Below are positions 7,247-61,961 of a stretch of DNA of 64,000 nucleotides, piece by piece. The translations under genes and the position numbers were made by a program. How positions within the stretch are numbered: the first letter of the stretch is position 1; each line of letters starts with the position of its first letter. Under the pieces are notes generated by a model that searched no databases, was not told where the DNA came from, and saw only the letters and a list, made by a program, of their open reading frames with translations. The stretch comes from Squalus acanthias. Taxonomy: Eukaryota. The stretch is taken from the NCBI GenBank assembly GCA_030390025.1, contig CM059432.1, positions 83,516,001 to 83,580,000 on the forward strand, given 5' to 3'.

Positions 7247-10200
7247 AACATAAGAATTAGGAGCAAGAGTAGGCCATACGGCCCCTCGAGTCTGCTCCGC
7301 CATTCAATAAGATCATGGCTGATCTTCGACCTCAACTCTACTTTCCTGCCCTATCCTCATATCCCTTGATTCCCCTAGAGTCCAAAAATCTATCTAGCTC
7401 AGCCTTGAATATTCTCAAAGACTCAGCATCGACAGCTCTTTGGGGTAAAGAATTCCAAAGATTCACAACCCTCTGAGTGAAGAAATTCCTCCTCATCTTA
7501 GTCTTAAAAGGCTGAACCCTTATCCTGAGACTATGCCGGCTAGTTCTAGATTCTCCAGCCAGGGGAAACAACCTCTCAGCATTTATCCTGTCAATCCCCC
7601 TCAGAATCTTACATGTTTCAATGAGATCACCTCTCATTCTTCTAAACTCCAGAGCGTATGGGCCCATTCTACTTAATCTCTCCTCATAGGACAACCCTCT
7701 CATCCCAGGAATCAATCTAGTGAACCTTTGTTGCACCGCCTCTCAGGCAAGTATATCCTTCCTTAGATAAGGAGACCAAAACTGTACACAATACTCCAGG
7801 TGTGGTCTCACTAAAGCCCTGTACAATTGTAGCAAGACTTCCTTACTCTTATACTCCAATCCTCTAGCAATAAAGGCCAACATGCAATTTGCCTTCCTAA
7901 TTGTTTGCTGTACCTGCATGCTAACTTCCTGTGTTTCTTGTATCTAAATCTCTCTGAACACCAACATTTAATAGTTTCTCACCATTTAAAAAATATTCTG
8001 TTTTTCTATTTGTCCTACCAAAGTGAATAACCTCACATTTCCCCACATTATACTCCATCTGCCATCTTATTCCCCACTCACTTAACCTGTCTAAATCCCT
8101 TTGCAGGCTCTTTGTGTCCTCCTCACAGCTTACTTTCCCACCTATCTTTGTATCATCAGCAAAGTTGGATATATTGCACTCAGTCCCTTCATCTAACTCA
8201 TTTATATAGATTATGAATAGCTGAGGCCCAAGCATTGGTCCTTGCAGCACCCCACTAGTTACAGCCTGCCATCCCAAAAATGATCCGTTTATTCCTACTC
8301 TCTGTTTTCTGTCCATTATCCAATCCTTTATCCATGCTAATATATTACCCCCATGTGCCCTTATCTTGCGTAACAATCTTTTATGTGGCACCTTATCAAA
8401 TGCCTTTTGGAAATCCAAATATACTACATCCACTGGTTCCCCTTTATCTACCCTGCTAGTTACATCCTCAAAAAACTCTAATAAATTTGTTAAACACGAT
8501 TTCCCTTTCATGAAACCATGTTGACTCTGCATGATCATATTGGGCCGGATTTTCCGATCGGAGGCTTCCTGCGTGCGGATGCCTTCGATCAGGAAAAATT
8601 TACGCACTTACCTTCTGGCTCCATAGGTCCCGAGACTTCTGATCCTGGGCTTCTGGTGCGCGCGCGCAGAGGCCCAGGGGCGCAGGCGGTTCGCAAGCGT
8701 CCCTGGGATCATGTGGGCTATGGGGAACTAATCAAAGAAGGGAATCCCCCCTCACACTTTTGACAGGTCTCTACGCATAGATCTGTCAAAAGTATGAACG
8801 GGGATCACAGTTAAAAACACAGTTAAACATTAAATAAATTTTTTTTAAATCACGTATTTAAAATTAGTTAAAATTACATTAAATTAAATATTTTAAACAA
8901 AAATGTAATTTTTTTGAGAAAAATAATTAAAGTTTTTTACAGGGCTAAAAATGAACTTACCTTTTTTAAAAGTATTTTTAAATTATAAATGAGTGAAATT
9001 TTTTTTTACCAGGCGTAAGATTTTTAAAGGTTTTCAGCGGGCGGAGGTTGTGCAGAAAGCGGAACTCTCCCCCCGCAGAGGCCCCTCTCCCGGGCAGGCG
9101 GAGGATCTGTCAAGTGGATTCTTGACAGATCGGAAGTGCCGGTTTTCAGCGCATGTGCTTCGTATGCCTGAAACCGACACTTGCGAGGCCCCTACGGGTG
9201 CGCACACACCTCGTACCCACCCGTGGGGGTCGGAATATCTGGCCCAATATGATTTTCTAAGTGCCCTGTTACCACTTCCTTAATAATGGATTCCAGCATT
9301 TTCCCGATGACTGATGTCATGCTAACTGCCTGTAGTTGCATGTTTTCTCTCTCACTCCTTTCTTGAATAGCGGGGTTACATTTGTTACCTTCCAATTCGC
9401 TGGGACCGTTCCTGAATCTCAGGAATTTTGGAAGATCACAACCAATGCATCCACTATCTCTGCAGCGACCTCTTTTAGAACCCTAGGATGTAGGCCATCA
9501 TGTCCAGGGGATTTGTTGGCTTTTAGTCCCATTAGTTTCTCAAGTACTTTTTCTGTATTGATATTAATTACTTTAAGTTCCTCACTCTCATTAACCCCTT
9601 GGTTCCCCACTATTTTCGGTATACTTTTTGCGTCTTCTACTGTGAAGACAGATCTAAAATATTTGTTTAAAGTCTCTGCCATTTCCTTGTTCCCCAATAT
9701 AATTTCTCCTGTCTCAGCCTCTAAGGGACCAATGCTTGCTTTTTCTACTCTCTTCCTTTTTACATACTTATAGAAGCTCTTACAATCTGTTTTTATATTT
9801 CTTGCTAATTTACTCTCATTATATTTTATCCCATTTTATCAACTTTTTGGTCATCCTTTGCTGGTTTCTAAAGCTCTCCCAATCCTCAGGCTTACTATTC
9901 TTCACAACATTATAAGCCTCTTCTTTTAATCTAATACTATCCTTAACTTCTTTAGTTAGCCACGGATGGATCACTTTTCCCGTGGAGTTTTTATTTCTCA
10001 ATGGAATGTATACTTGTTGAGAATTTTAGAATATTTCTTTATATGATTGCCACTGCTTATCTACCATCATACCTTTTAATCTAATTTCCCAATCTACCTT
10101 AGCCAACTCGCCCCTCATACCTATGTAATTGGCTTTGTTTAAGTTTAAGACTCTAATGCCAGACTTAGGAATGTCACTCTCAAACTTAATGTGAAATTCT

Positions 10201-18591: not shown

Positions 18592-19989
18592 TTAAAAAAT
18601 GCATCGATGCAACCCATCCGGACCAGGGGTTTTATCCTCTTTGAGTTTGATTAGTTTATTTAATATACCCCCTCTTTTTATTTTAAATATACTTATCTCA
18701 TGACTAATCTCATCATCCAATGTCATGTCTACTTGTTCTATCTCCCTGGTAAATACTGAAGCAAAATAATTATTTAATATTTCTGCCATCGCTCTATCGT
18801 TACCTATGGTATTATCCTGTCTACGCCTTAATGGCCCTATTCCCATCCCAACCTTCCTTCTTTTATTGATATGCCTGTAAAATATTTTACTATTTTGTTT
18901 TATGTTCCTTGATAATTTAATTTCATAGTTCCTCTTTGCCTTCCTAATTGTTTTTTTGACTTCTCTCCTAATCTCTTCATATTCTCCCTTATCATGCACT
19001 CCCCTGCTGTCCATGTTCTTAATGTATGCCTCTTTCCTTACCCTCAATTGTTCCCTTATGGCTTTATTCATCCATGGAGTCTCATTAGTGTTTAGTTTGT
19101 TCTTTCTTTTTAGCAGAATATATTGTTCCTGCACTCTGTTGAACACCGTTTTAAATGTTTCCCATTGCTGTTCTACATCGTTGTTTGCCAATATTGTTGC
19201 CCATTTTATTTTCCCAAGTTCTATTCTCAGCCCCTCAAAATCAGCTTTTCTCCAATCTATTACCCTGGTTTTTGTCATACTTATGTCCTTCTCAATTATC
19301 ATCTTAAAGTGTATTATATTATTGTCACTATTGCCTAGGTGTTCCCCTACTTTTACTTCTCTTATCTGCTCTGGTTCATTTCCCATTACTAGATCCAATA
19401 GCGAATCCTCCCTTGTTGGGCTTTTTACACATTGGGTAAGAAAGGAGTCCTGTCCACATTGTAGGAACTCCATTCCCTTATCTACTTTACCTACCTCTTC
19501 TGTCCAATTAATATCAGGGTAGTTGAAATCCCCCATGATTATTATTCTATGTTTTTTACTCATTTCCCTAATTTGTCTGCATATTTCTTCCTCCACCTCC
19601 CTTCGACTATTAGGTGGTCTGTAGACTACACTTATTAGTGTGATTGATCCTTTATTATCTTTTATCTCTATCCATATGGATTCTATTTTTGTCTTGCTAA
19701 TAGCTGCGTCACTTTTTTCTACTGCCATTATGTTATCCCTAATAAGTACAGCTACTCCACCTCCCCTTTTTCCCTCTCTATCTTTTCTAAATATGTTATA
19801 CCCTGCAATGTTCAATTCCCAGTCCTGATTTTTCTGTAGCCATGTCTCAGTAATCCCTATTATGGCTGGTTCCTTGCAATGCATGATTGCCTCCAGCTCC
19901 CCTGTTTTATTACAGACACTGTGTGCATTTCTGTACAGACAGTTTAACTCATTTTTAATAGGATTTCCTCTCACTTTATGTTTAACCAT
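18592..19989 (-). CDS. CR1 ORF2 N-terminal AP endonuclease and linker (465-aa open stretch)
   Basis: GITETWL, RGGGVA, YRPP, MGDFNYPDINW, LDLV, HLGNSD, KTPGPDGLH motifs; frameshifted downstream. Confidence 0.85.
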   Translation of the reverse strand: MVKHKVRGNPIKNELNCLYRNAHSVCNKTGELEAIMHCKEPAIIGITETWLQKNQDWELNIAGYNIFRKDREGKRGGGVAVLIRDNIMAVEKSDAAISKTKIESIWIEIKDNKGSITLISVVYRPPNSRREVEEEICRQIREMSKKHRIIIMGDFNYPDINWTEEVGKVDKGMEFLQCGQDSFLTQCVKSPTREDSLLDLVMGNEPEQIREVKVGEHLGNSDNNIIHFKMIIEKDISMTKTRVIDWRKADFEGLRIELGKIKWATILANNDVEQQWETFKTVFNRVQEQYILLKRKNKLNTNETPWMNKAIREQLRVRKEAYIKNMDSRGVHDKGEYEEIRREVKKTIRKAKRNYEIKLSRNIKQNSKIFYRHINKRRKVGMGIGPLRRRQDNTIGNDRAMAEILNNYFASVFTREIEQVDMTLDDEISHEISIFKIKRGGILNKLIKLKEDKTPGPDGLHRCIF

Positions 19990-20129
19990 CTTTTTAGACT
20001 CCTGTTCTAGAACTTTCTTTATTCCCTTGCCATCAATGTCCTCCCTTACTTTATTCTTTCCTATGCTCTCTTTTCCTGTTTTGTTTATAATTAGGCTGGT
20101 TATGTTTCTTGTAGATCCCTCCCCCCCAT

Positions 20130-20599
20130 CTTACTAGTTTAAAGCCTTTGCCACCTCCCTATTTACCCATTCCGCTATGACGCGGGTCCCATCCCAGTTC
20201 AGGTGGCGCCCGTCCCATCAGTATAGCTCCTTCCTGTCCCAGAACTGGTGCGAGTGTCCCATGAAAAGGAACCCCTCTTTCCCACACCAGCCCTTTAGCC
20301 ACATGTTAATTCTCCTGATCTGTCTGCTTCTATGCCAATTTGCACGTGGCTCGGGCACTAATCCAGAGATTATTACCCTTGAGGTCCTGCTTTTTAATTT
20401 AGAGCCTAACTCCTGATACTCTTTCAGCAGGGCCTCTTTCCTGTTCCTACCTATGTCATTTGTTCCAACATGGGCCACAACAACTGGATTTACCCCCTCC
20501 CTTTCCAAGTTCCTCTCCAGCCGCCATGAGATATCCCTTATCCTGGCACCGGGTAGGCAACATGCCCTTCGGGATTCTCGTTCTTGGCTGCAGAGGACG
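20130..20599 (-). pseudogene. CR1 ORF1 SGNH esterase-like fragment
   Basis: VVAHVGTNDIG...ISGLVPEP...WLKGWCGKEGFLF...FWDRKELY followed by DGRHLN. Confidence 0.85.
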
Positions 20600-32133: not shown

Positions 32134-33234
32134 TATAGAGTCATAACGGCACAGAAGGAGGCCATCTGGCCCATCGAGTCCATGCCGGCTCTCTGTAGAG
32201 CAATCAAGTCAGTCGCATTCCCCCGCTCTATCCCCGTCGCCCTGCAAGTTTATTTCCCTCAAGTGCCTATCCAGTCTCCCCTTGAAAAAACTGAGTGTCT
32301 CTGCTTCCACCACTTCCGTCGGCAATGAGTTCCAGGTCATCACCACTCGCTGCGTAAAAAAGTTTTTCCTCACATCCCCCCTGTATCTCTGGCCCAAAAC
32401 CTTAAATCTGTGTCCCCTAGTCCTTGTACCTTCAACTAGTGGGAACAGCCTTTCCCCGTCTAGCCTATCCAAACCCGTCATAATCTTGTACACTTATATC
32501 AAATCACCCCTCAACCTCCTTTGTTCTAATGAAAACAAATCCAGCTTCTCCAACCTGTCCTTGTAGCTAAGATCCCCCATCCCCGGAACCATTCTGGTAA
32601 ATCTCCTCTGCACCTTCACATCATTGCTAAAGTGTGGTGACCAGAACTGGACGCAATACTCCAGTTGTGGCCTAACCAGCGCTTTATAAAGATTCAGCAT
32701 AACTTCGCTACTTTTGGGGCTCAATTTTGCCGGCGCTCAGGGGGCGGGGTTGGAGGCGGGTCAGGCGGTAAATTTGAAAAAAATGCCAGCGGGTCCGATC
32801 CCGCCGTCAACCCGCCTCCGTCCAACTTTTCCAAAGGCGGGCTCGCAGATTCCCGGTCGGTCCCGCCACCAAGTTGCGGGATAGGGCCTTAAGGGAGTTG
32901 TTAACTCCCTGTGTAATCCTATTTTGCCTGGCCTTTTACATTTTACCACATTTTCAGTGTGTTCCACCTCATTACCAAACCACGCCAGCTAATTGTGTCG
33001 GGTTCACAAGTGACTGGCTTCCTGATAGCTGCAGCTCCAGCATAAAAACTGAGCTTTCAACAAGGCTCAGTTGCAGGTGGCAGAACTTTGTTTTTTCAGG
33101 TCTTGGCAAACTTTTTGCAGGTCTACTGATTTTGGAAGTGGTGAAGCTGAGATCCATCTCCTCTGTGACCTCCTGGGAAAACCCTCTCCCCACACTAACT
33201 GAGCACTTCCTCAACTGAGATATTTACCAGCAGC

Positions 33235-34353
33235 ATGGGAACCATTTATTTCCTTTCATCCTGGTCCTCAGATTTGGAGGAAGAGCAGCCGCAGCAGCAG
33301 CAGAACCAGGAACAACAACAGCAGCAACAACAGGAGCGCCAACCTGCTGCTCACCCACCTGAAGCTGCACAGGGCAGAAGGCATCAGTGCAGGGAAGCAC
33401 GTCGCTGCAGGAGATACCCCCAACACAGGGTTTACAGGCCGAGGAGCAGCTTCCTAAACATGAGTGAGCAGCAGTGCCAAAGGAGGCTGAGATTTTCACG
33501 AGAGGTAGTCGGTGACATCTGCGCAATGCTGCATCAACGCCTGGAGCCCAGAGGAGTGGGTGGACACCCCTTACCAGTGGCTGTCAAAGTCACCACCGCA
33601 CTCAATTTTTTAACTTCAGGGTCCTTCCAGGGATCATCAGCAGACATCAGCGGCATCTCCCAGTCGGCCGCACACACTTGCATCACGCAGGTAACCGATG
33701 CCCTCTTTGCCAAGGCGCACAATTACATACACTTCTCGATGGATCAAGCAAGTGTAACCGCGCGTGCGGTTGGAATTGCAAATATGGCAGGCTTGCCAAG
33801 GGTGCAGGGCGTCATAGACTGCACACATGTGGCCCTTAGGGCACCTCATCACAACCTAGTTGTTTTTGTCAACCGCAAGGGCTTCCACTCCCTCAACGTT
33901 TGCTGGTGTGTAACCACAGGAAGGACATTTTGCATGTTTGCGCGAAGTACCCTGACAGTTGTCATGACTCGTTTATCCTGCGCCAGTCTAGTGTGCCTCC
34001 GCTCTTCAATCCACCAAACCAACTTGTGGCTACTTGGAGACAAGGGCTATCCCCTGAAGACGTGGCTGAAGACGCCGTTGAAGAGACCATCCAATGAAGC
34101 TGAGGAGCGCTATAATGCCAGCCACATTTCTACCAGATCCATTATCGAGCAAACCATCAGCTTGCTGAAGATGCGATTCAGCTGTCTTGATAGATCAGGT
34201 GGAGCCCTACAGTATTCAGCAGCCAGGGTCTCCAGAATCGTCGTGGTCTGCTGTGCACTGCACAACATCGCACAGCATCGTGGCTTGCAGCTGCCTGAGG
34301 AACAAGTGGCTCAGCGCATAGCCTCCTCAGATGAGGAGGAGGAGGAGGAGTAA
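33235..34353 (+). pseudogene. Harbinger (HARBI1-like) DDE transposase with internal compensating frameshifts
   Basis: [41 protein letters not shown] motifs; the [11 protein letters not shown] segment lies in another frame (33900-34025). Confidence 0.9.
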
Positions 34354-36645: not shown

Positions 36646-37529
36646 TTCAGCAGTAGAACACACTTTAAGCAGTTGTCACTCTGGAAGAACATAGGCACAA
36701 AATGAAGCAATGCTGCTTGGAGGCCTTAAATGCAGCTGGAGAAATGACGTCAGCAGGGGCGAGTTTCAAGTGCCAATTAGGGCAATATCGCAATTTTATC
36801 CTGCCCGACAGCGGAGGCGGAATCGGGACCCGCCGACCACCTGACCCGCACTCAACCCGCCACCAATGGCAAAATCGAGCCCTTGTACTCAATACCTCTA
36901 TTTATGAAGCCCAAGATCCCATATGCTTTGTTAACCACTCTCTCAATATGTCCTGCCACCTTCAGGGACCTCTGCACATTAACTCCCAGATCCCTCTGTC
37001 CCTGTACACTCTTTAAAACTGTGCCATTAAGTGTATATTGCTTCTCCCTGTTCCTTCTGCCAAAATGCATCACCTCACACTTCTCTGTATTAAATTCCAT
37101 CTGCCACTTGTCTGCCCATTCTGCTAGCCTTGCTATGTCCTGTTGCAGTTGATTGGTATCAACCTCACTGTTTGCCACACCCCCAAGTTTGGTGTCATCG
37201 GCAAATTTAGAAATTCTACTCTGTATTCCAATATCCAGGTCATTTATATATATCAAAAAAAGCAGAGGCCCGAGTACTGACCCTTGGGGAACACGACTGT
37301 CTACCATCCTCCAGTCTGAAAAACAGCCATTTACCACAACTCGCTGTTTTTTGTCCTGAAGCCAATTCCTTATCCAAGCTGCCACTGCCCCACCTATTCC
37401 ATGAGCCTCAATTTTGTTAACCAGCCTTCTATGTGGTACTTTGTTGTTACTGGGACAAATTTCTAATGCCTGTGTCAAAGTGCTGTACTAAATGGCCATC
37501 GTCATTCAGAAACTGGCTGCTGAAGGCAG

Positions 37530-40871: not shown

Positions 40872-42760
40872 ATGGCTCACCAGGGCAGAGAAAGGGCATC
40901 TTGGTTCTCAGATGCAGCACTGGAGGCCTTAGTGCAGGGCATCGAAAGGAGGAGACAGGTCCTCTACCCGTAGGGTGCAAGGAGGCCCTCCAGACTGACT
41001 GTAAGAAGGCAGTGGGAGCAGATTGCTGAAGCGGTCAGTACCACCAGTCTTTCCCCCAGGAACTGGATCCAGTGCCAAAAGAAGTTTAATGACCTCACAC
41101 GAGTGGTCAAGGTCAGTGAATTTATCTTCAAATGCCATATCCCACCAAGTGCACCACTAGCCTCACAGACTGCTCAATGCACCACACCCCCCTCACAAAT
41201 CTACCAACAATCTCAATCAATCACAACTCATACCTCACAATCATAGCTTCACCTCATGCTCACACATTTACCACTGTTGCAAGCCTCACACCCACATCTC
41301 ACAGCTTTCTCACATTTAACCATGACAGCCACATCACCCAAACACATTGCACCACACTCACTGATACACTTCCCTTTCTCTTGCAGACCAGTGCCAGCAG
41401 CAGCTAACAGGCGGGGGACAGGCACGGCCGCATATCCTGACCCAGCTGGAGGAGACAGTGCTAGACATCATTGGAGGGGCCGTCACTGAGGCTGTGGTGA
41501 TCGGCGAGGTTGGAAGTATTGATGATGACGGTATACCCATACCTCATCCTCCTTCTCACATCCCACTTCCCCCTCATCCCATAAACTCTTCTCACTTACA
41601 AGCTGTTGCTGGTGTAAGCATGCACATCTTGCTTTCCCCCCGCACTCCCCTCACCACAACCCTACCCTTGTGCCTTTCTCATTTCAGATGCCCAAGAATT
41701 CCAACCAGCCCAGCCAATGCAGGAAGAACAAGAGGAGAGTGATGGAGAAGAAGAGACACCGTCACTCGATCTGACACTCGCAGACACCAGCTCAGAAACT
41801 GGCACCACGCGTACTTTAGAGGGTAGTATAGAGGCGGGATCTGCATGTGGTGAGTCACTGGGCACAAGTAGGCTGCAGCCATGGCAGGGGGAAAGGGTAG
41901 CGCAGGTGCCAGCTCCCCAGAGGGCGAGGTCGCGCATGAGTTCTGCTGCAGAGGACTCAGATGAGGACTTTGATGGGGTGGCCTTCAGAAGATGGGCATG
42001 CACACAGGAATGCTTGGTGCATTGACAGGTCTGCCAGACAGCCTGATGTCACTGTCAAGAAGCATGGAGGAGACCGACTCCAACCTTGCACAGGGCTTTG
42101 CCCAAAGCTTGGAGCCCATGATTTCCAGGATGGAAGTGATGGGCAACTTCATTAGAGCACTTGTGGACCCAACCATGATACTGGGTGTGATGGCCAATGC
42201 CTCAGCTTCCATTGCAGCACAAGTGGGAGCGACCCACCATCTGAGTGCTGCAGTGGAAGCTCAGAATTCTGTCATGCAAGCTCAGACTGCTCTCATGCAA
42301 GGTCAGCTTGCTGCCATCGTGGTTGCTTTACCAGTGTTGAAAGGGCTTACAGGGTTTCACAGCAGTCTAGCAATCTGTCCTCCAACAGATTACTAGGATT
42401 GCTGAGGCGGGGAGTGCCAGTGGCTCTGTGGAGCACAAACCTGCTTTCCTCTCTCTGGATTACAGTATTCGTACTTCCACCACTGCCACGCCGCCAGTGC
42501 CCTTGCTGTTGCCTGTCAGCCAGCCAGTCCAGACTGCTGCCACCAATGCTTAGTTGGTGCAGTCTACAGCTGGGCCTCTAGGCCCAGAGCTACTCGAGGT
42601 CATCCTGCAAGGCTATCTGCAGTCTCCCCCATTGAAAGTCAGCAGCCTTCCACCAGCTATGCTATGTCCACTGGGGTAGCACTTCGTAGGAGCACTAGGA
42701 TAGGCAAAGGCACACGAAAGACAGGCACTAAGGGAATGCACAAGGGTGATTGGTTGACTT
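40872..42760 (+). pseudogene. Harbinger Myb/SANT-like gene (3 exons, stops and frameshifts)
   Basis: 240-nt exon 1 (40872-41111, WFSDAALEALV...WIQCQKKFNDL, internal TAG) with GT donor; exons from ~41387 and ~41688. Confidence 0.8.
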
Positions 42761-42879
42761 TGTTTTGCATTGGAATGAATGATTTATAAATTATGTTTGG
42801 AATGTTTGTTTTGTGGTGGCTTTCATTTCAGCATTGTGGCCAAGAGGACGCTGTGATGTTCCATGACAGAGGAATGGTA

Positions 42880-44053
42880 AGGTTGGGAACTGTTGAGCAA
42901 CGGGGATCTGGCGACAGCCCGTCCGGAACATGGATTTGCAGGTTGCCTTCTTCCTTCCTCCTCTTTTTCCTCTTCCTCCTTTTCTTCCTTCTCCTCCTCC
43001 TCTTCATCTCCTCCTCCTGAGATTGTCGTGGAACCCGTGGTGGCAAGGGCTGTGCCCTCATGATGGTCAAGTTGTGTAGGATGTAGCAGACCACCACGAA
43101 ATGAGACACCTGCTCCGGTGAATATTGGAGGGCTCCTCCCGAGTGGTCAAGGCAGTGGAACCATTGCTTGAGCACCCCGATGATCTGCTTGATGATGTTC
43201 CTCGTGGCAGCATGGCTGTCGTTATATGAGTGCTGGCCACGAGTGGTGAGGTTGCGGAGGGGCATCATCAGCCTGGTGTAGAGCGGATAGCCCTTATCAC
43301 CTAGCAGCCATCCTCAGGTTCAACGTGCTGGCTGGAAGATTGCTGGCACAGTGGACTGGCGCAGGATGAGGGCATCCTGACTGCTGCCAGGATACCAGGC
43401 ATTCACCATCATGATGTGCTGGGCACGGTCAAACACAAACTGCACATTAAGTGAGTGGAACCATTGACGGTTATGGAACATCTCACCATTGATAAGCGGC
43501 GCTCACAAAGCTATGTGTGTGCAGTCGATGGTGCCCTGCACCAAGGGGAAGCCCAATATCCTGGCAAAGCCATGGGCGTGCTTCTCCTGCTTCTCTCTGT
43601 TTAGAGAGAAGACAATGAAGTCCCCTCTCATAGAGCACAGAGCCTCTGTGACCTTCCGGATGCAGCAATGGACAGCCAACTGTGAGATGTTTGCTATGTC
43701 ACCTGTTGTAGCCTGGAAGGATCCACTGGCAAAAAAATTCAGGGCCACGGTCACCTTCAAGGCCACTGGCAGAGCTATAGTTGCCCTGCTCTGAGGTTGC
43801 AGATCTGGTTCCAAGAGGTGACAGAGTTTTGTGACCACCTCCTTTGTTGAAGCGGAGCCGCTGAACGCAGTGCTCCTGGTTTAGGTGCAGGCGGGAGAAG
43901 TGCTCCCTAAAGACCCTAGGTCAGTGAGGCCTCCTGCTCAGAGCCCTCCTCTCCCTCCTCCTCTTGCTGCGAGCAACATGTCTTCTTCGCTGCCTCTGCT
44001 CCATCTCCCTGTCATGCTGCAGCGTGAGGGGACCTGCAACTAAAGACCCCATT
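42880..44053 (-). pseudogene. Harbinger DDE transposase, fragmented
   Basis: ORFs 43503-43838 (ALNFFASGSFQ, GTIDCTH) and 42828-43268 (GVLKQWFHCLD, CYILHN); GDKGYP at ~43285-43305. Confidence 0.9.
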
Positions 44054-48249: not shown

Positions 48250-48739
48250 ATGTACCTTGATGGATTTTGTTGTTTTAATGTAACTGATTATCAACAGGTG
48301 GCCTGGGCATAAACCAAGAGTTGTGGATCGGCTGCCCGTTATAGAAACTGCCCGATGATGGAAATGAAAATTGATGGAAATGAACATCGGGCGGGTTCTA
48401 TAATGGGCGGACAATCAAGCCTACTGAGGTATTGCCCAAGCAGTGAAGATGAAAATAACTCCCAATATCTCTTATTCAAACCTATTAAACTTCTGCACTC
48501 TGATATCTTTTTGTAGACACTTGGTGGCCTTTTTTTTCCCATCTTGCATCAATTCAATTAGTTTTGGTCCATCAAATCAATTTGTGAGATGAATTGATAG
48601 TTTATGTAAGACTAGAGGTAAAACAAAAACTGTGAATGCAGGAAATCAGAGAAAGAAACAGAAACTGCGCAGAGGATTAGCTAGCATCTGAAAAAGATAG
48701 GCAGAAGTTTGCAACCAGTTGGGATTCAGATTTTAACTG

Positions 48740-48954
48740 TGTCATAAATCGCAAGTAACAACTCAGGAAGTACTACTGGGCGGCCAGCTGGGGCGCCGTC
48801 CAGAGAGTATAAATACTCAGGCATGGGCCCACCTTGGGCAGAGACAATCTGGAAACAGGAAGCTAGTGACTGCTAACTAGACCTCCATGTTTTGTTACAA
48901 GTTGATTAAAGCCTTGCTTTATGTTCAAGTGCGTAGTGAGTCTTTATTACGTCA
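48740..48954 (+). repeat. 5' LTR
   Basis: TGTCATA...TACGTCA; TATAAATA at 48808-48815; ATTAAA at 48905-48910. Confidence 0.97.
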
Positions 48955-48955
48955 A

Positions 48956-48968
48956 TTTAATCAACTTG
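48956..48968 (+). promoter_or_regulatory. Putative self-complementary primer-binding site
   Basis: TTTAATCAACTTG is the exact reverse complement of LTR 48898-48910; no TGG (anti-CCA) after the LTR. Confidence 0.75.
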
Positions 48969-49054
48969 ATATCGTCTCCACGCTTTGGGTGATTCGGAAC
49001 AACCAGCTGCAACTCGAACCACAGAAGGGAACTAGGGCAAGAAACTGATCCATC

Positions 49055-49860
49055 ATGGAAAACTCCTTAGACCCGCTCGTCTCGACCTGGACCCGAATGC
49101 ACCTGCGGCAGCGAAGGTATGGAAGCATTGGTTTCGTACCTTTAGCAACTTTCTTGAAGAATGTGGGGCGGATGTCCCTAATAAGTTACGAATGCTTATC
49201 AACTACGTGTCTCCTCATGTGTATGATTATATTGAGGACTGTATAGACTATGACACTGCTATCGAAATCTTACAGCAGCTATATGTCAAGTCCCCAAATG
49301 AAATCTTTGCTCGACACCTACTGGCCACAACTCGGCAGCAGCCTGGGGAATCACTCGATGAATTTCTCCAGAAACTTCGCAGGCTCAGCAAGGATTGTAA
49401 CCTTAAAGCAGTTACAGCTGAACAGTATCAAGAGGAACTAATCCGCGATTCCTTTATCAATGGGATCGCGTCCCCTTTTATACGTCAGCGCCTGCTGGAA
49501 AATAAAACCCTCAATTTACGGGCTGCTTATGACCAGGCGTGTTCCTTGGACTTGGCCAAGAAAAATGCAGACACTTATCTCCCACCACGTGCACGGGCGG
49601 CGGCTATCTCCTTTAATGAGTCTTTCGGTAGGTCTCGGGCGGATGCCCCCACTGATGTCGACTCTACTCTAACAGACGACGACCCTACCCTAGAGGCCTT
49701 CGCTGATGACGACCCCTGCCCTAGCAGCATCCTGGCAATCAGGAAGAAAGTGTTTCTTTTGTGGAGGGGCGTGCCATCACAGAAAATTTTGCCCGGCTCG
49801 TAATGTGACCTGCAATCATTGCAGCAAGAAAGGACACTTTTCCAAGGTATGCCAGTCACG
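49055..49860 (+). CDS. gag: Gypsy Gag with two CCHC zinc knuckles (frameshifts at ~49060 and ~49715)
   Basis: LRPARLDLDPN..WKHW, RQQPGESLDEFLQKLRRLSKDC, LIRDSFING, CFFCGGACHHRKFC, CNHCSKKGHFSKVC. Confidence 0.85.
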
Positions 49861-52800
49861 GGCCTTTGCTAACAAGAAAGGCCGCTCCTCTAAAGTATAC
49901 CGGTCGAGAGCTCCTGTTAGCTTCACAGCTGCTATCTATGGAGCTGCTCCTCCCCCAGGAACCACTGTTAAGGCTACAGTTGCCGAAGGGAAAATTGCCC
50001 CTCCTCCCATCACGGCTGTTTTTCCCCAAAGTTTGTCCCATGCAGCCACGAAGGTTTCAGTAAATGGGCACACTCTAAGCGCGCTAATCGACTCCTGCAG
50101 CTCTGACAGCTTCATTAGTAAGCGGGCTGTCAACAGGTTAAAACTGCACATTTATCCCTCGGACAGGGAGATTGCAATGGCTCTGACGACTCTGACCACC
50201 AATTCTTCTGGCTTCTGTCTGGTCAACCTCATCCTCAACGGCCGCACGTATCTCTCCACCCGGCTCGGAGTACTCGCAAACTTATGCAGCGATGTGCTTC
50301 TGGGACAGGACTTCCAGAAGCAGCACAAGAAGATCACTTTTGAGTTTGGAGGATCAAGGCCGGAGCTTACCATTTCTAAGGTGCCGTTTTGTGCACTCTC
50401 GGCGGCCTTACTCGGTGAACCCTCCCTGTTTGCCAATCTTCCCCCCCGCTGTAAACCCATAGCCACCAAATCGCGGCGCTTTAGCCAAGACGATCGAGCG
50501 TTTATTGAGGCGGAAATCTCTCGCCTTTTAGTCGACGGTATTATCGAGCCATGTTCATCTCCCTGGCGGGCTCAGGTCGTCATCGTGAGGAATCCCTTAA
50601 AACAACATAAAAAACGTCTGTGTATCGATTATTCGCAGACTATTAATCTATATACCGATCTGGATGCCTACCCGCTGCCACGCATAGATGACATGGTCAA
50701 CAACCTTGCCAAATACAAGGTATTCTCGACCTTCGATTTAAAAAGCGCGTACCATCAGGTGCCACTGCAAGACTCCGACAAGAAGTATACGGCCTTTGAG
50801 GCCAATGGTCGGCTTTTCCAGTTTCGCCGCCTTCCATTCGGGGTCACCAATGGGGTGGCCGTCTTCCAACGGGCCATGGATGGCCTAGTCCGGCAAGAGA
50901 ACTTGACGGATACCTTTCCGTATTTAGACAATATCACTATTGCCGGCCATGATCAAAAGGAGCATGACGCCAATCTTCAGAGATTTTTTGATGTACTCCG
51001 CCGTCGCCACTTAACGTTAAACGAATCCAAATCGGTGAAGTCGGTGCCATCGGTGAACATTCTTGGCTACTGGGTGGGCAACGGTGTTATTAAACCGGAC
51101 CCAGAGCGACTTCGTCCACTTCAGGAGCTCCCTCCCCCGACGAACCTCGGCTCTCTTCGTCGGGCACTTGGCATGTTTGCTTATTACGCAAAATGGATAC
51201 CACACTTCTCCGATAAAATACAGCCCCTGCTCCATGCGAAGTCTTTTCCATTGGAAGCTACGGCTATTTCTGCCTTCAACCTCCTCAAACGACAGCTGGA
51301 GAAAGCCACGCTTCGCTCCATTGACGAAAATCTTCCTTTGTGGTCGAATGCGATGCATCGGAGGTGGCGATCTCCGCTACCTTGAATCAAGGTGGCCGAC
51401 CCGTGGCATTCCTATCCAGAACCTTGCAGGGTAGCGAGCTCCATTACCCCCCCGTCGAGAAGGAGGCTACGGCCATCATCGAGGCTGTACGCCAATGGGG
51501 TCATTTTCTTGCTCGGCGTCATTTTACGCTTATAACTGACCAGCGCTCTGTGGCCTTCATGTTGGATAACCGGAGGCGCACGAAAATCAAAAATAATAAA
51601 ATTCAACTCTGGAGGATGGAGCTGGCTGCCTTTGGATATACTATTTGCTACCGACCCGGCAAACAGAACGTGGCCCCAGATACCTTCACACGGGCATTTT
51701 GCTCCTCAATGTCAACGTCGACTCTGGCGGATTTGCATATGGACTTATGCCATCCTGGTGTGACCCGCATGTTGCACTTTGTGCGCTCCAAAAATCTACC
51801 ATTTTCAACCGAGGACGTAAAGAAAACATGCTCCTCCTGTAGGATTTGTGCAGAATTGAAACCACAATTCTTTCGCCCATCAGATGGCTTACTCATACAT
51901 GCAATGCAGCCTATGCAGAGGCTCAGCATAGACTTTAAAGGGCCATTGCCTTCGTCGACAAGGAACACCTACCTACTTACGATGGTGGACGAGTATTCAC
52001 GCTTTCCCTTCGCCTTCCCCTGCCCTAATATGCTTACCTCTACGGTAATTAAATGCCTCGATCAGGTCTTTTCCCTTTGCGGGACGGCCAATTTTATCCA
52101 CACTGATCGGGGTCCCTCCTTTATGTCGAGTGAACTTAAAAGTTATCTCTCCCAACGGGGAATCGCCTCAAGTAGGACGACACCATATCACCCAATCGGT
52201 AACGGACAGGTTGAACGATACAATGCCATCATCTGGAACTCTGTCCGTCTGGCACTAAGGTCACGCAACCTGCCGGACCAGCAGTGGGAAACGGTGCTCC
52301 CCGACGCGTTACACTCTATCAGGTCTCTTCTCTCCACATCTACTAATGTCACGCCTCATGAGCGATTCTTCAAATTCCGGCGTCGCTCTACACATGGGAC
52401 GTCTCTACCGTCATGGTTGGTGGCTCCAGGCCCGGTGCTACTCCGGAGGTTCGTCCGGTCTGCCAAAAACGACCCTCTCGTTGACGAGGTGGAGTTAACG
52501 GAGGTAAACCCCACGTATGCGCACGTACGGTACCCTGATGGCCGGGAGACCACCGTCTCGCTCCGAGATCTGGCTCCCTGCCCAACCGGTCACACGGGCC
52601 CGAATGATGAAGGATCCCCCGACAATGATATCAACACTCCGCACCCCTATGAAAATGATGCCCCGCCTGGGACATCGGGGGATCTGCCGGCAACGCTACC
52701 GGATCAACTCAGGGAGCTGGACGCTCCCCGTAGGATGGCCACCCGAAACCAGGACGCCGGACAATCTCCAGCCACGACCCGGGATGAGGCCAGCTCAGCA

Positions 52801-52995
52801 CCTGTGGGGACCCGCACCCGGAGTCATGATATTCCCAGTCCTCCACAGGATGATCAAGATGACGCGGACTCTACTGACTTACCGGTACGGGCCAAGCGAC
52901 CCAGGGACCAGGACACGGTCCGGGGAGACGTGCCTTCCAGTCACAAGCAGAGAGCCAAACGTCTACGGCTATTTCTGGTCCGCCTAGTCCGTTAA
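49861..52995 (+). CDS. pol: Gypsy Pol: protease, RT, RNase H, integrase (frameshift at ~51338)
   Basis: ALIDSCS; DLKSAYHQ, LPFGVTN, YLDN; CDAS, EKEA, TDQ; HHCC, IDFKG, HTDRG, VERYN; no chromodomain evident. Confidence 0.92.
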
Positions 52996-53021: not shown

Positions 53022-53033
53022 AGGGAGGAAGAA
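53022..53033 (+). promoter_or_regulatory. Polypurine tract
   Basis: AGGGAGGAAGAA immediately before the 3' LTR. Confidence 0.9.
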
Positions 53034-53248
53034 TGTCATAAATCGCAAGTAACAACTCAGGAAGTACTACTGGGCGGCCAGCTGGGGCGCCGTCCAGGGA
53101 GTATAAATACTCAGGCATGGGCCCACCTTGGGCAGAGACAATCTGGAAACAGGAAGCTAGTGACTGCTAACTAGACCTCCATGTTTTGTTACAAGTTGAT
53201 TAAAGCCTTGCTTTATGTTCAAGTGCGTAGTGAGTCTTTATTACGTCA
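53034..53248 (+). repeat. 3' LTR
   Basis: 214/215 identical to the 5' LTR by eye. Confidence 0.97.
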
Positions 53249-53280
53249 AACTGCCTTAAGAAAATAAATAAATATATAAT

Positions 53281-56200
53281 GGGGATGAAATTGGAGGCGT
53301 TAACTCCAGCTGCTACCCCCATGAAATGGCGAAAAGACGGCAGCCGGCGCTCTTCTGCCAGCTGGTGGCGAATCCATCGGCGCAGGCCATTTTGGAGCTG
53401 CTGGTAAACACTAGGGCCAGGGAGATTTAAATGAAAGCGATTGTGACGTCAGTGAGTGTGTAACGCTCACATGCCCCCCGATCTCCAACATTGCATTTAG
53501 CCATTGTACTTACCGTCAGTGCAGAACAACGACAGGGAGAGCTGTCGGCCCAGCAGGAAGCAGGCTGCAGCAGCGATATTTAAAGACACCATCCCAATCA
53601 GTTGCACCTGACATGGTTCTGCAGTTTCAGTGGCTGTTTGCTGCTTCCTGCAACTGAAACAGCTTTCTTTAGTTATTTCAAGTTCTTTTGGTAACAGGGA
53701 GTGTTGATTCAAGTGCAGAAGTCCCTCATTTTTTAAAGGTTTCTGCTCACAACAGGTCCTCATGACGGCTGCACTGGCAGTTGACCTCGCCCTCCAGGAT
53801 CTACGGCAGAAGGAGCGGAGGCAGCGAGGAAGATGGGAACCTGCACACAGAGACAGGAGGAAGAGGGCCATGAGGACTCTCAACAGGAGGCCTTACCCAC
53901 CTAGGGTCTTCCAACAGCACTTCAATTAAGCGAGGAGCAGTGTCTTAGGAAGCTATGCTTCAGCAAGGAGGTGGTCACAGAACTCTGCCACCTCCTGCAA
54001 CCAGACCTGCAGCCTGAGAGCAGTCAAGGACACCGTGGCACACCACATCCCCATCATACCATACCTGTGTCACGGAATATCACATCGCTCTCCTGGACAC
54101 AAAGCTGAAATGAGACACACCACAAAAGATTCCAAACACAATTATTAAATTTATCAATAATCGCAAGACTCATATTTACAATTATACTATCAACTAATCA
54201 CCCTGGTGCAATCCCTTAATGTCTGTTTTTCGTGTGGCTTTTCCTATTCCAGTGCTCCTACGATGAGCTCCCCCAGTGGCTGCAGCATGGCTGGTGGAAG
54301 GCTGCTGACTTTCAGTGGGGGAGACCTCAGATGGCCTTGTAGGACAACCTCAAGCAGCTCTGGTCATAGAAGGCCCGGCTGTAGACTGCACTGCATCGGC
54401 ATCGGCGGCAGCAGTCTGGGCTGGCTGGCTGACAGGCAGTGGCAAGGGCAATGGTGGAGTGGCAGTGGTGGGAACAGGAATGCTGTCATCCTGAGAGAGG
54501 ACAGCAGGGTCCTGCTCCACTGACTCACTGTCACTCCACTGGGGTGGCGCCTCAGCATTCCCACCAATCTGTTGGAGCACAGATTGCTGGCCTGCTGTGA
54601 CACCCTGCAAGCCCCGCTCAACGGTGGGCAACCCAGGCATGATGGCAGCAGTCAGAATTGGGTGGCACCAAGCAGAGACTGCATGATAGCAGTCTGAGCT
54701 TCCGCTGCAGCACTAAGATGTTGGGTCACTTCCGCCTGTCCTGCAATGGAAGCTGCAACATCACCCATCATGCGCGCCATTACCTCTGGGTCGGTACAGT
54801 CTCTCTGGGAGTGCACGATCATTTCCAGGCTGGAAATCCTCAGCTCCATGCTCTGCGCAGAGCCCCGTGCAATGTTGGAGGTGGACTCCTCCACACTCCT
54901 TAACATTGCCGAGAGGCTCTCTGGCAGCCTTGCCATTGTACCTATCATCTCCCTGTGCATGCCCATCATCCTTCTTCTGAAGGCCTCCTCATCTGAGTCC
55001 TGTGCAACAGAACTTGCGCTCGAACTCGCCCTCCGGGGAGCTGGCCCCCAAGCTACCCTTTCTCCCTGGTCTTGCTGCAGCCCACTCATGCCCGGTGCAT
55101 CACCCAGTGCAGATCCCGCTTCTACACTAGCCTCTAAAGTTTGCGTAGTACCAGTTTCTGAGCTGGTGTCTGCGAGTGAGAGATGTAGTGACGGTGCCTT
55201 TTGTTCCTCCTCCTCTTCTCCCCCGCGCTCTCTGCGGTGTCCTCGGGGACAGGCTGCTCAGCTGCTTGTTGATTATCTGAAAGCACAAAGACACAAGAGT
55301 TGGGTTATGTTGAGGGGTGGGGTGGGTGGGGGGCGGGGGGAGCCAGAAATGCATCCATACAGCATAAGCAGCTCGAAAGTGAGGAAAGATTGTGGGCTGA
55401 GGGGGAAGTGGGATGTGAGAAGAAGGATTAGGAATGACCATACCGTTGTTGTCCCCAAAGGGTCAAAACTCACCAGTGGCCACGGCCTCTACCACGTCAT
55501 GCCCAATGATCTCAAGCACTCACTCCTCAAGCTGGCTCAGGTGTTGAAGGTCCACCTGGCCCCTTCCTGACCACTCCTGCTCCCCGACCTTGGCCTGCAA
55601 GAGAAAGAGAAGTGTTGAGTGAGCGTGGAGCAATGTGTTTGGGTGATGTGCCTGCCATAGTTGAATAGCTGCCGTTGTGTGCAAGATGTGAGATGTAGGT
55701 GTGAGTGTTGATAGGTGGAGATTGTTGCTTTGTGAGTATTGGGGGTTTGATGCATTGAGCAGTGTGTGAAGTTGTGTTGCAGGTGGTGGTATGTGGCATT
55801 TACTGAAGTCTTCACTCACCTTGACCACCTGTATGAGGTCGTTAAGCTTCTTCCAGCACTGGGTGTGGGTCCTGGAGCCAACAGTGCTGGTCGTGACATG
55901 GTCCACTTCTCACGCCACATGGTCCTGGATGCGTGTGGCGAGGGTCTCCTGCCAGTTTGTGTGTATAGCACTGCCTGCCTCGAGAGCTTCGTCGGAGATC
56001 CTAGGGGCTATCTCCCTCTGTCTATGTTCTACTATCACTACTTGTAAGTGTTGCTTCACCGTCCGCCTTTTCACTGTGCTGTTGGGGCAGCTGAACAGCC
56101 TAACAGCCAAACAATGAGGTGCTGCAGCATTAATCCACCCTCCTTTTAAATAGGAAAAAGTCTGTGGCAATCATGACTGAATTAGACCGTCCACCATATT

Positions 56201-59547: not shown

Positions 59548-61961
59548 GGCCCTAAAATGCCGGCCACCACTCTTTCGCCAACTGGTGGCGAGTCCCGTGA
59601 CGGCCGCCATTTTGGTCCCTACCTTTGCGTTGATGGTAACTGGCATTGCCATTCTGAACAAAATGGCGGCGTTGTGACGTGCACGCCGACTTAACGTCAC
59701 AAATGCGAACTTGGACCCTAACACTGGGTCCTAAGCACGCAAGCATGGCGTGCAAGCAGGCTGACAGTGGTGATGTCAACACCTCTTAAAGGACACACAC
59801 ATCTTTCAGGTAAGTTTGTATTTAAGCTTTATGACTTTTTTTTTGATTTTATTGAAGTAGTGGCTTGCTGCAATAGATATTAAAAGTTTTTTAAGTGTGT
59901 AGGAAGTGCTGCTGGATGCTTGCAAAGGCTCGGATGGTAAATGAAGGCCTTTGAGCAGACAGAAAATGTTGCAAATACTCAGCAGGTCAGGCAACATCTG
60001 TGGAGAGAAAAACAGAGTTCACGTCTCAGGTCGAGATGCTGCCTGACCAGCTGAGCATTTCTAGCATTTTATGCTGGCATTTCACATTTACAGCATCCAC
60101 TCGCAGAGGGAAGAGGAGGACACAGAAGAGGACGAAGCAGAAGAGGAGGAAGCAGATGGATGGATGCATCCCAGACAGCCCCTTTGTGGCTGAGATATCT
60201 GGGATGGTATCATCTGCCTCCGGTACCAGTGACTACAACCCAAATTCCAACATTAGTCCCACACCTTACCTTCCCTCTTTTACTGACCATAACAGTGTTC
60301 TCTTGGCCACGATGCTGAAATAAAAGCCACCATAAAGCAAACTTTTCAATCCAACTATATACATCTATCCATCCAATGTGACATCAAGAAATCAACTCAT
60401 TACCCTTATGCATTCTCTTAGTGACTGTCTTGTGTGTGCCTTTGCCTATCCTACTGAAGTCACGCAATACTACCCCAGTGGCTGCAGCATGGTTGGTGGA
60501 AGGCTGCTGACTTTCAGTGGGGGACACTGCAAATGGCCTTGCTGGTCGACCTTGAGGAGCTGGTGGCTGGGACTGTGAAATCAATCTTCTTCTTCTTGTT
60601 CTTCTTCACCCTCCTCTCCCTCTTCTTGGTCATCCATTGACTGGGCAGGCTGCATTTCTTGGGTGTGTGAAATGAGGAAGGCACAAGGGCGTTGTGGTGA
60701 CGGGAGGGCAGGAAAGCATGAGGTGCATGCCAGAAGGAGGATAACGTATGAGGATACCAGCATCTTGTATCCTTTCAGCCCCACCACTGGCCAAGGGCTC
60801 AGCCATGCCCCTGCCAAGAATGGCCTGCACCATCTCCTCCAAGGGGGTGAGGTGAGGCTAGGAATGGGAGATGTGCCTCGTGATTGGTGCAGATTGTTGG
60901 TAGGTGAGTGATTGGGGGTCATACATTGAGCAGTGTGTGAGGCTAGTGGTGCAGTTGGTAGGAGACGGCTTTTGAAGATGCATTCACTGACCTTGACCAC
61001 TGGTCTGAGGTCATAAAGCTTCTTTGGGCACTGGATCCACGTGGTGGGGGCGACACTGCTGGCAATGATAGCCTCGGTCATCTGGTTCACATCGTTCTTT
61101 CTGGAGGGCCTCCTGGCCCCTGTGGGTAGAGGGCCTATCTTGCATGTTGATCCCCTGCACAAAGCTGGAGTGCTGAGTGTAAGATGTTGGGTGCCCCTTC
61201 CCTGGCTTGCTGAGCCATTTTGTTAGTGCTGGAGCACTTTTCCCATTTTTTGAGGTTAGAAAGGGAATTCAGCTTTAAGAGCTGAATATTCACATCTGAG
61301 ACTTCTTTTTAATGTTTTAAAAAAAAATCAGACTGGGCTGAAAACTGGATTGTTTCATTGGATTTTAATTTGTATTATTTCAGAGTGCATGGCCCCTTTA
61401 ATTCTCAGGCCTTTACATTGCCCACAATTCCTTGCGAGCTCCACAGCCTCGCTTCCCCTAAAAAGAGTAAATGCTGTTCTACTCTGCCTTATAGGAGTCA
61501 CCAGGAGAAAGGGAGTGCTTGCTAGAGGGCCCCTTGATCTGCAGGAGGAATGGGAGGCCAGGCAGAGCAGCATCAGCTGCTGCAGGAGAGAGGGACAGGA
61601 GGGCGAGGTGGACTCCTTCCCTCTGTGAGTACAGGACATCCCTCCTCCTCTGGACCGCCTCCATCAGGACCTCCAGTGCCGCGTCCAAGAACCTGTGAGC
61701 CCTCTCACTCGGTCCCTGAGCCATCCTGAAAGGTGCCACTGTGCCAGCGCACATTACATCTTCAGTAGAAGTGGGTGAGTGAGCCTAAAAATACTGCTCC
61801 ACGAAAATTGTGTCTAATCAGCGCCTCCAGGCAAGTTCAAATTATGGTAATCAGCAGTTAGAACCAAAATTGCATGCTAAAACCACTTTCAAACAGGCCG
61901 TATCTTATTAGCACACCACCCATTTAGCACCTGTGTGCATCCTTTCACCAAAATAACCCCC
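59548..61961. mobile_element. Harbinger derivative (transposase deleted; two Myb exon-1 remnants)
   Basis: Transposase 3' stub ~60100-60230; Myb remnants (-) 60410-61220 and 61620-61725 (HRFLDAALEVLMEAVQRRRDVLY). Confidence 0.7.
59955..60098. mobile_element. Short inverted Penelope pLTR pair
   Basis: actcagcaggtcaggcaacatct ... agatgctgcctgaccagctgagc. Confidence 0.6.

Follow-up and report, generated by a model that had tools for sequence, protein, structure and literature searches.

The window analysed here, a stretch of 64,000 nt, carries a young, high-copy Gypsy retrotransposon of 4.5 kb between positions 48740 and 53248 (Table 1). The marks of Ty3/Gypsy elements are all present: LTRs of the TG...CA type, a target-site duplication, a polypurine tract (PPT) and the domain order PR-RT-RH-IN, with Pfam matches to protease, reverse transcriptase (RT), RNase H and integrase in Gypsy order. 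The closest solved RT is that of Ty3. A single difference separates the two 215-nt LTRs (48740-48954 and 53034-53248). The coding region of the window copy is split into three frames; sister copies have a single frame of up to 1315-1325 aa. Querying the element's own 3.7-Gb genome with LTR and leader gave 1294 candidates, and the 40 that were scored were all at least 99% identical. Named protein relatives, at 51-72% identity, come from crustaceans, cnidarians, a mollusc and a spider; no relatives of the element were found in viral_contigs. Pfam detected neither a chromodomain, as the first-pass annotation had also stated, nor SH3_Tf2-1 in the window element. With its two CCHC knuckles, Gag is presumably Mag-like.

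Elsewhere in the window we noted a 384-aa frame with DDE_Tnp_4 (33199-34353, plus strand), a Harbinger-type transposase; diverged repeats at about 41000-43900, 53850-55770 and 60400-61100 that match one another; and, on the minus strand, LINE fragments at 18592-20130, 7921-8607 and 36852-37487 comprising one endonuclease frame and two RT frames. Contig depth is about 10-fold higher at window positions 48803-48836 in three runs, and loose ends at this place match the L118 subfamily of the element, which is seemingly far more abundant. At a related locus of the same genome (L025/L026), a PPT is followed by an LTR and then by a primer-binding site (PBS), with the next LTR 4286 nt away, the arrangement of a two-element tandem sharing one LTR.

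Table 1. Features of the Gypsy element and its flanks, in window coordinates.
Feature	Position	Strand	Remark
Left target-site duplication, 5 bp, AACTG	48735-48739	+	5-bp duplication likewise in 9/10 full-length sister copies
5' LTR, 215 nt, TG...CA	48740-48954	+	
TATAAA (48808-48813) within short palindrome	48805-48818	+	Probably not the working promoter
Predicted self-primer; 11-nt core 48900-48910	48898-48910	+	RNA 5' end predicted at 48898-48900
ATTAAA poly(A)-signal hexamer, 3' end of predicted primer	48905-48910	+	
Predicted cleavage site AAA/GCC	48910-48911	+	By analogy with Tf1
Hairpin just 3' of predicted cut; window-copy stem 48913-48929	48911-48929	+	
LTR-end hairpin	48931-48952	+	Real in the window's family, no clade feature
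Spacer base between LTR and PBS	48955	+	
Primer-binding site, complement of 48898-48910	48956-48968	+	
Mutation hot spot, one base beyond PBS	48969-48969	+	Candidate footprint of RT run-off at primer 5' end
gag frame	49036-49803	+	
Two CCHC knuckles, protease, reverse transcriptase; YLDN at 50921-50932	49694-51385	+	
RNase H and integrase; without chromodomain, without SH3_Tf2-1	51325-52995	+	Pfam
Polypurine tract	53022-53033	+	
3' LTR, 215 nt	53034-53248	+	
Right target-site duplication	53249-53253	+	

No TGG follows the 5' LTR of the window element. The first-pass annotation had pointed out that the 13 nt at 48956-48968 pair with a segment of the LTR itself, and they are indeed the exact reverse complement of 48898-48910, with no extension on either side. 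Both stems that it had drawn within the enclosed loop (48913-48929 and 48931-48952) are present in the predicted fold, and its placing of TATAAA (48808-48813, ending 85 nt before 48898) and of ATTAAA (48905-48910) is correct. When the 21 nt after the LTR were compared with dinucleotide-shuffled LTRs (n = 2000), the longest complement was 11 nt and the mode 5; 13 nt was reached in 0/2000.

The pairing extends to the relatives of the element. We examined 101 loci, made up of 80 from metagenomes, 20 from the element's own genome and the window copy; 29 had no gag N-terminus or too little upstream DNA and were excluded, which left 72 testable loci. An exact helix of at least 10 bp precedes gag in 62 of these. 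Inspection by eye of the loci where it was missed showed deleted copies within helix-bearing families (L054, L068, L092), one mismatch or insertion (L055, L107) and gag matches that are not true starts (L035, L096); at the other three (L033, L042, L050), neither LTR nor helix was seen before gag. The latter three are clade members by RT and are possibly truncated, rearranged or domesticated. Together with two further loci (L046 and L086), the 62 fall into 26 families at <70% identity.

These 26 families have 22 different 11-mers. Counted back from the junction at which the helix ends, positions -1 to -11 are Watson-Crick pairs in 275 of 275 cases in 25 families (L086, in shifted register, was excluded), although the choice of families on exact helices of at least 10 bp accounts in part for the perfect pairing at -1 to -10. 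Double changes relative to the commonest pair account for 52 of the 275 core pairs, and when one family's PBS was set against another's LTR, 11/11 pairing was seen in only 10 of 650 pairings. The compensatory covariation between PBS and LTR segment that the first-pass annotation had proposed to look for in relatives is present in the double changes (52/275). Helices measure 11-18 nt, none of the families falling below 11. A separate family (L051, with L062, L066, L067, L095 and L101) has a 13-nt primer and PBS identical to those of the window element, at an RT identity of 54% and with an LTR otherwise unrelated; in one of its copies, L060, a one-base change is compensated on both sides.

A common anatomy emerges, which reads: pyrimidine run, A-G-T-N4-T-A-A-A, junction, R-C-C, loop of 24-77 nt, CA, one base, T-T-T-A. 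The helix ends at the junction in all families, with R-C-C next in most; across the clade the paired LTR segment lies 24-77 nt upstream of the PBS, and in every family the partner strand starts 1 nt past the CA of the LTR. TGG was found at the PBS start in 0/26 families. By comparison, four TGG-type Gypsy elements from the same genome, which we take to be Mag-like, have self-complements of 4-7 nt and a TGG no more than 4 nt from the LTR end. In unconstrained folds, all 11 PBS-LTR pairs form in 25 of the 26 families and 10 pairs in the remaining one. Within the loop, a stem starts at the junction in 20/26 families against 6.0 expected (the window copy, whose stem begins 2 nt further on, does not contribute to the 20), whereas the LTR-end hairpin (9/26 families against 9.3 expected) and a leader-loop ("pretzel") duplex (6.2 nt against 6.0 nt in shuffles) are at chance level. 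Taken together, these patterns of pairing and position make it likely that elements of this clade prime themselves in some way.

How the primer would be made depends on where the RNA starts. The first-pass annotation had placed the primer-like segment about 85 nt downstream of the TATA box and had suggested that the primer might arise by internal cutting of the RNA or be supplied by its 3' LTR copy. The distribution of TATA-like motifs does not bear out the TATA box as working promoter: they occur in 6/26 families, 78-175 nt from the junction, and none was seen in the available sequence of the other 20 families (upstream sequence reaches 120 nt or more in 19 families). Such a motif lies 86-103 nt above the junction in the window's family, to which L118 belongs, and in the L111 family. 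A short palindrome surrounds it in the window copy and L118; in the L111 family it occupies the loop of an 8-bp inverted repeat. A YR dinucleotide, on the other hand, is found at -11 or -12 in 24/26 families against a background of 0.55 upstream, in a test devised post hoc, after the data had been seen, and on families that are related. The A-G-T at -11 to -9 is conserved and -8 to -5 are more variable. Set beside the initiator consensus, the YR before the helix end is read as an initiator. A DPE-like motif was found in no more than 3/26 families at any position, and a search of the element's own genome for retroposed poly(A)-tailed copies gave 0 matches. Of 16 sequencing runs, all consisting of contigs and one recorded as RNA, four were aligned; three of these cover the element's start region, and among the rows listed for them there is no RNA start, RNA end or poly(A) loose end.

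Pairing beyond the core fades over the same region. At -12 to -17 the numbers of paired families are 25, 21, 15, 15, 16 and 8 of 26, against 8, 11, 11, 8, 9 and 8 in cross-family comparisons; in the second family of the element's own genome, -12 is unpaired in 14/19 copies. As pairing stays above background beyond -13, up to -16, the RNA might sometimes start further up, or the extension might have another cause. The YR signature and the fall-off in pairing would place the 5' end of the RNA near 48898-48900, at a TATA-less initiator, and this is where the proposed internal cut and 3' LTR origin lose ground. A start at this place would amount to ordinary Tf1-type geometry, the very case that the first-pass annotation had named as counting against its own proposal; we arrive at it by inference from sequence patterns. 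Construction of the primer by splicing was also considered and rejected: complementarity in the genomic LTR already runs through the AG, and the preceding base is a purine in 12/26 families.

Variation among sister copies, which were picked by protein query (51 fully covered, 53 at the primer and hot spot), bears on the same question. Variant alleles number 4 in the 71 nt of 48898-48968 against 41 in the 158 nt of 48740-48897 (p 4e-4, calculated on copies that are not independent), and the predicted primer, 48898-48910, is invariant in 53/53 copies. Conversely, the TATA window has five singleton changes in 16 nt, one of them within TATAAA (51 copies), and both the TATA region and 48820-48897 are as variable as the rest of U3. 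A single position stands out just past the PBS. At 48969, 43 copies have A, seven G and three C; this is the sole site of 430 with three alleles each present in at least two copies, and G occurs on five haplotypes. Small indels are found at the equivalent place in the second own-genome family. One could envision that plus-strand synthesis runs off the end of a short primer there and that an untemplated base is added. The available text of PMC3035444 describes such addition in vitro by RTs including that of Tf1; nothing on the PBS end in vivo was found in that text.

The scarcity and lack of constraint of the TATA motif, the YR, the fading of pairing by -17 and the hot spot past the PBS all favor a short, Tf1-like 5' primer. 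We therefore lean, with moderate confidence, toward a 5' RNA primer of 11-13 nt in Tf1-like geometry, operating in a non-chromoviral animal Gypsy clade. In such a system, transcription would begin 11-13 nt ahead of the helix end (48898-48900), from an initiator without TATA, and the capped 5' end would fold onto the PBS, stacked on the hairpin that begins at the junction. The element's RNase H would cut after ...UAAA (48910/48911), freeing the 11-13-nt primer, from which RT would copy about 45 nt to the cut before jumping to the 3' end of the RNA. There the hexamer would act as poly(A) signal, and an overlap of about 15-25 nt would be left; a CA is present at 48927-48928. Plus-strand synthesis would then copy the primer back into the PBS, leaving errors just past it; this copying back would keep the PBS-LTR pair perfect. 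Start site, primer and poly(A) signal would apparently be packed into 11-13 nt.

The strongest competitor retains the internal cut. Here the RNA of the own-genome families, at least, would start about 30 nt below the TATA at 48808, and the primer would be a capped fragment of about 70 nt with its last 11-13 nt paired. Several observations fit this scheme: the TATA-like motifs of the window, L118 and L111 families, a possible hairpin at 48847-48893, between TATA and primer, and the pairing above background to -16. We nonetheless consider it unlikely: no TATA-like motif was seen in 20/26 families and the other six have it at 78-175 nt, the TATA window carries its five singletons in 16 nt, and 48820-48897 varies like U3. 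In addition, reasoning from established LTR replication, a long primer would have no counterpart to the modified base at which plus-strand copying of a tRNA halts, and its use would result in an unpaired 3' tail. The fullest form of the proposal, in which TATA is the real promoter of the own-genome families, an internal cut exactly where the poly(A) signal ends releases the long capped primer, and a single helix serves both to block 5'-LTR polyadenylation and to prime a YxDN-type RT, strikes us as similarly doubtful. If true, an internal cut would add a third route to minus-strand priming, one that shares neither origin nor geometry with Tf1.

A different role for the helix comes to mind from the position of the poly(A) signal. 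In 17/26 families the last six bases of the predicted primer, and so of the LTR arm, are AATAAA or ATTAAA, and the PBS-side arm is found only behind the 5' LTR; the helix could simply hide this signal in the 5' LTR while something else primes. This we regard as improbable, and more so than an internal cut. In nine of the 26 families the helix is present but contains no canonical hexamer, three of these having the hexamer outside, in the loop; the partner strand starts 1 nt after CA, the exact priming position; and TGG is lacking. Furthermore, the inner hairpin uses G-U freely whereas G-U pairs are absent from the helix at both -11 and -12; inspected by eye, the 10 misses include no G-U-interrupted helix. 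Occlusion of the poly(A) signal may instead be a second role of a helix that primes.

Two further sources of primer seem very remote. The 3' LTR copy, with the RNA circularising or pairing in trans and being cut after the hexamer, contains the same 13-mer and cannot be told from the 5' copy by sequence alone, but the 5' copy closes a loop of 45 nt and forms in the unconstrained fold, and cutting the 3' copy would presumably remove sequence needed for strand transfer. Priming by a host RNA (a tRNA fragment or another small RNA), the LTR match being incidental, has a precedent in the half-tRNA priming of Copia lineages described in the available text of PMC6317226, but is hardly credible when 22 different 11-mers each match their own LTR, the best tRNA match is 7 nt among 44 host tRNA genes of four isotypes, and Rfam gives no meaningful match in 48600-49200.

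In a quick RT-RH tree of 47 rows (5 rows with <200 columns were left out), the clade forms a single branch with an SH-aLRT of 100, apart from three chromoviruses and from 10 other Gypsy rows of the same genome; the TGG-type elements of that genome form a separate clade. Nesting of the clade among the three sampled chromoviruses was rejected in a 16-row quick tree (p-AU 0.003). Support for a sister position to chromoviruses is 35, and a sister position to the TGG group has a p-AU of 0.45. A chromodomain was detected in 0/9 full polyproteins of relatives and in 3/3 chromovirus controls. The earlier suggestion that the element differs from Tf1/sushi is supported as regards its separate lineage and lack of chromodomain, and is not supported as regards its geometry, which is probably Tf1-like. 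The clade appears to work like Tf1 and yet lies outside the Tf1/sushi group; an independent origin of its self-priming is likely.

The RT motif sets the clade apart as well. It is YLDN in the window and YxDN in most of the clade (L031-L130), with YxDD in two basal rows (L072, L078) and in L032, L033 and L097; the YxDD of the basal rows suggests that YxDN is a derived state that has reverted in places. Literature searches combining YLDN with Gypsy, and YxDN with reverse transcriptase, found no relevant report. The element's own genome was also searched for chromoviruses: 16 PF00385 matches all lie in frames of <260 aa, the eight PF24626 loci have a YVDD-type RT in six cases and no RT in two, and a chromovirus motif pattern gave 0 matches. 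Among these loci, L131-L136 combine YVDD-type RTs with an SH3_Tf2-1 match; they are retrovirus-like and far from both Gypsy groups in the tree. Of three chromovirus circles from viral_contigs, only L201 has a self-complement before gag, of 10 nt and just upstream of it, and is probably a self-primer of the Tf1/sushi type.

The nearest analogues are Tf1 and Tf2 of Schizosaccharomyces pombe, Tj1, Tosmo and the Tf1/sushi group at large, in which the PBS likewise lies directly after the 5' LTR and is complementary to an LTR segment. The 11-nt core, the Gypsy domain order and the single gag-pol frame of intact copies are further points in common with Tf1. To our knowledge, self-priming has been shown experimentally only for Tf1-type elements of fission yeast, and it has been treated as a mark of the Tf1/sushi group. 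Unlike that group, the present clade is without chromodomain or SH3_Tf2-1, forms an RT clade of its own and mostly has YxDN; unlike Tf1, it is without the pretzel duplex and has a hairpin at the predicted cut and a poly(A) hexamer within the predicted primer. According to the available text of PMC7175516, the Tf1 primer is 11 nt long and is released by RNase H between bases 11 and 12; the available portions of that paper and of PMC4600332 cover self-priming in Tf1 and Tj1, and those of PMC5341516 report that the choice of start site decides priming in Tf2. The pretzel leader structure, and the finding that seven of seven fission-yeast elements are chromoviruses, are described in the accessible part of bioRxiv 10.1101/2022.12.06.519325.

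Among animal elements, the clade resembles by description Mag A/B/C, Cigr-1, CsRN1 and MolGy1-16, which are short, with short LTRs and without chromodomain. The term "PBS" is absent from the main text of the clade surveys PMC6238403 and PMC8556966, and no motifs of our clade were found in the supplements of the former, one PDF of which was unreadable. Neither did the literature that we searched, including the available text of PMC3601003, yield a report of self-priming in a non-chromoviral animal Gypsy clade; Butler 2001, Repbase or supplements may hold one. Annotation that relies on the PBS would miss such a clade. Independence from tRNA would, by inference, also allow these elements to escape silencing by tRNA fragments.

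Systems outside the Tf1/sushi group offer further parallels. The fungal GalEa Copia elements also have no tRNA PBS and carry a conserved inverted repeat at the PBS position; in GalEa, as described in the available text of PMC5445492, both arms lie downstream of the LTR, with no LTR complement, whereas here one arm is inside the LTR. Others are the plant elements Tcn1 (Gypsy) and TAR, Houba and Osr-1 (Copia), for which self-priming was likewise inferred from PBS-LTR complementarity. The criterion used for Tcn1 and TAR, in the portion of PMC6317226 available, was a complement of 10 bp or more that begins 0-5 bp past the LTR, and the plant predictions given there show that the trait arose outside Tf1/sushi. 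Tcn1 is chromoviral, TAR belongs to Copia and both have plant hosts; the present clade is, by contrast, one of animal, non-chromoviral Gypsy elements. The same signature in a widespread animal Gypsy clade outside Tf1/sushi would mean either that self-priming arose independently or that it is a much older trait.
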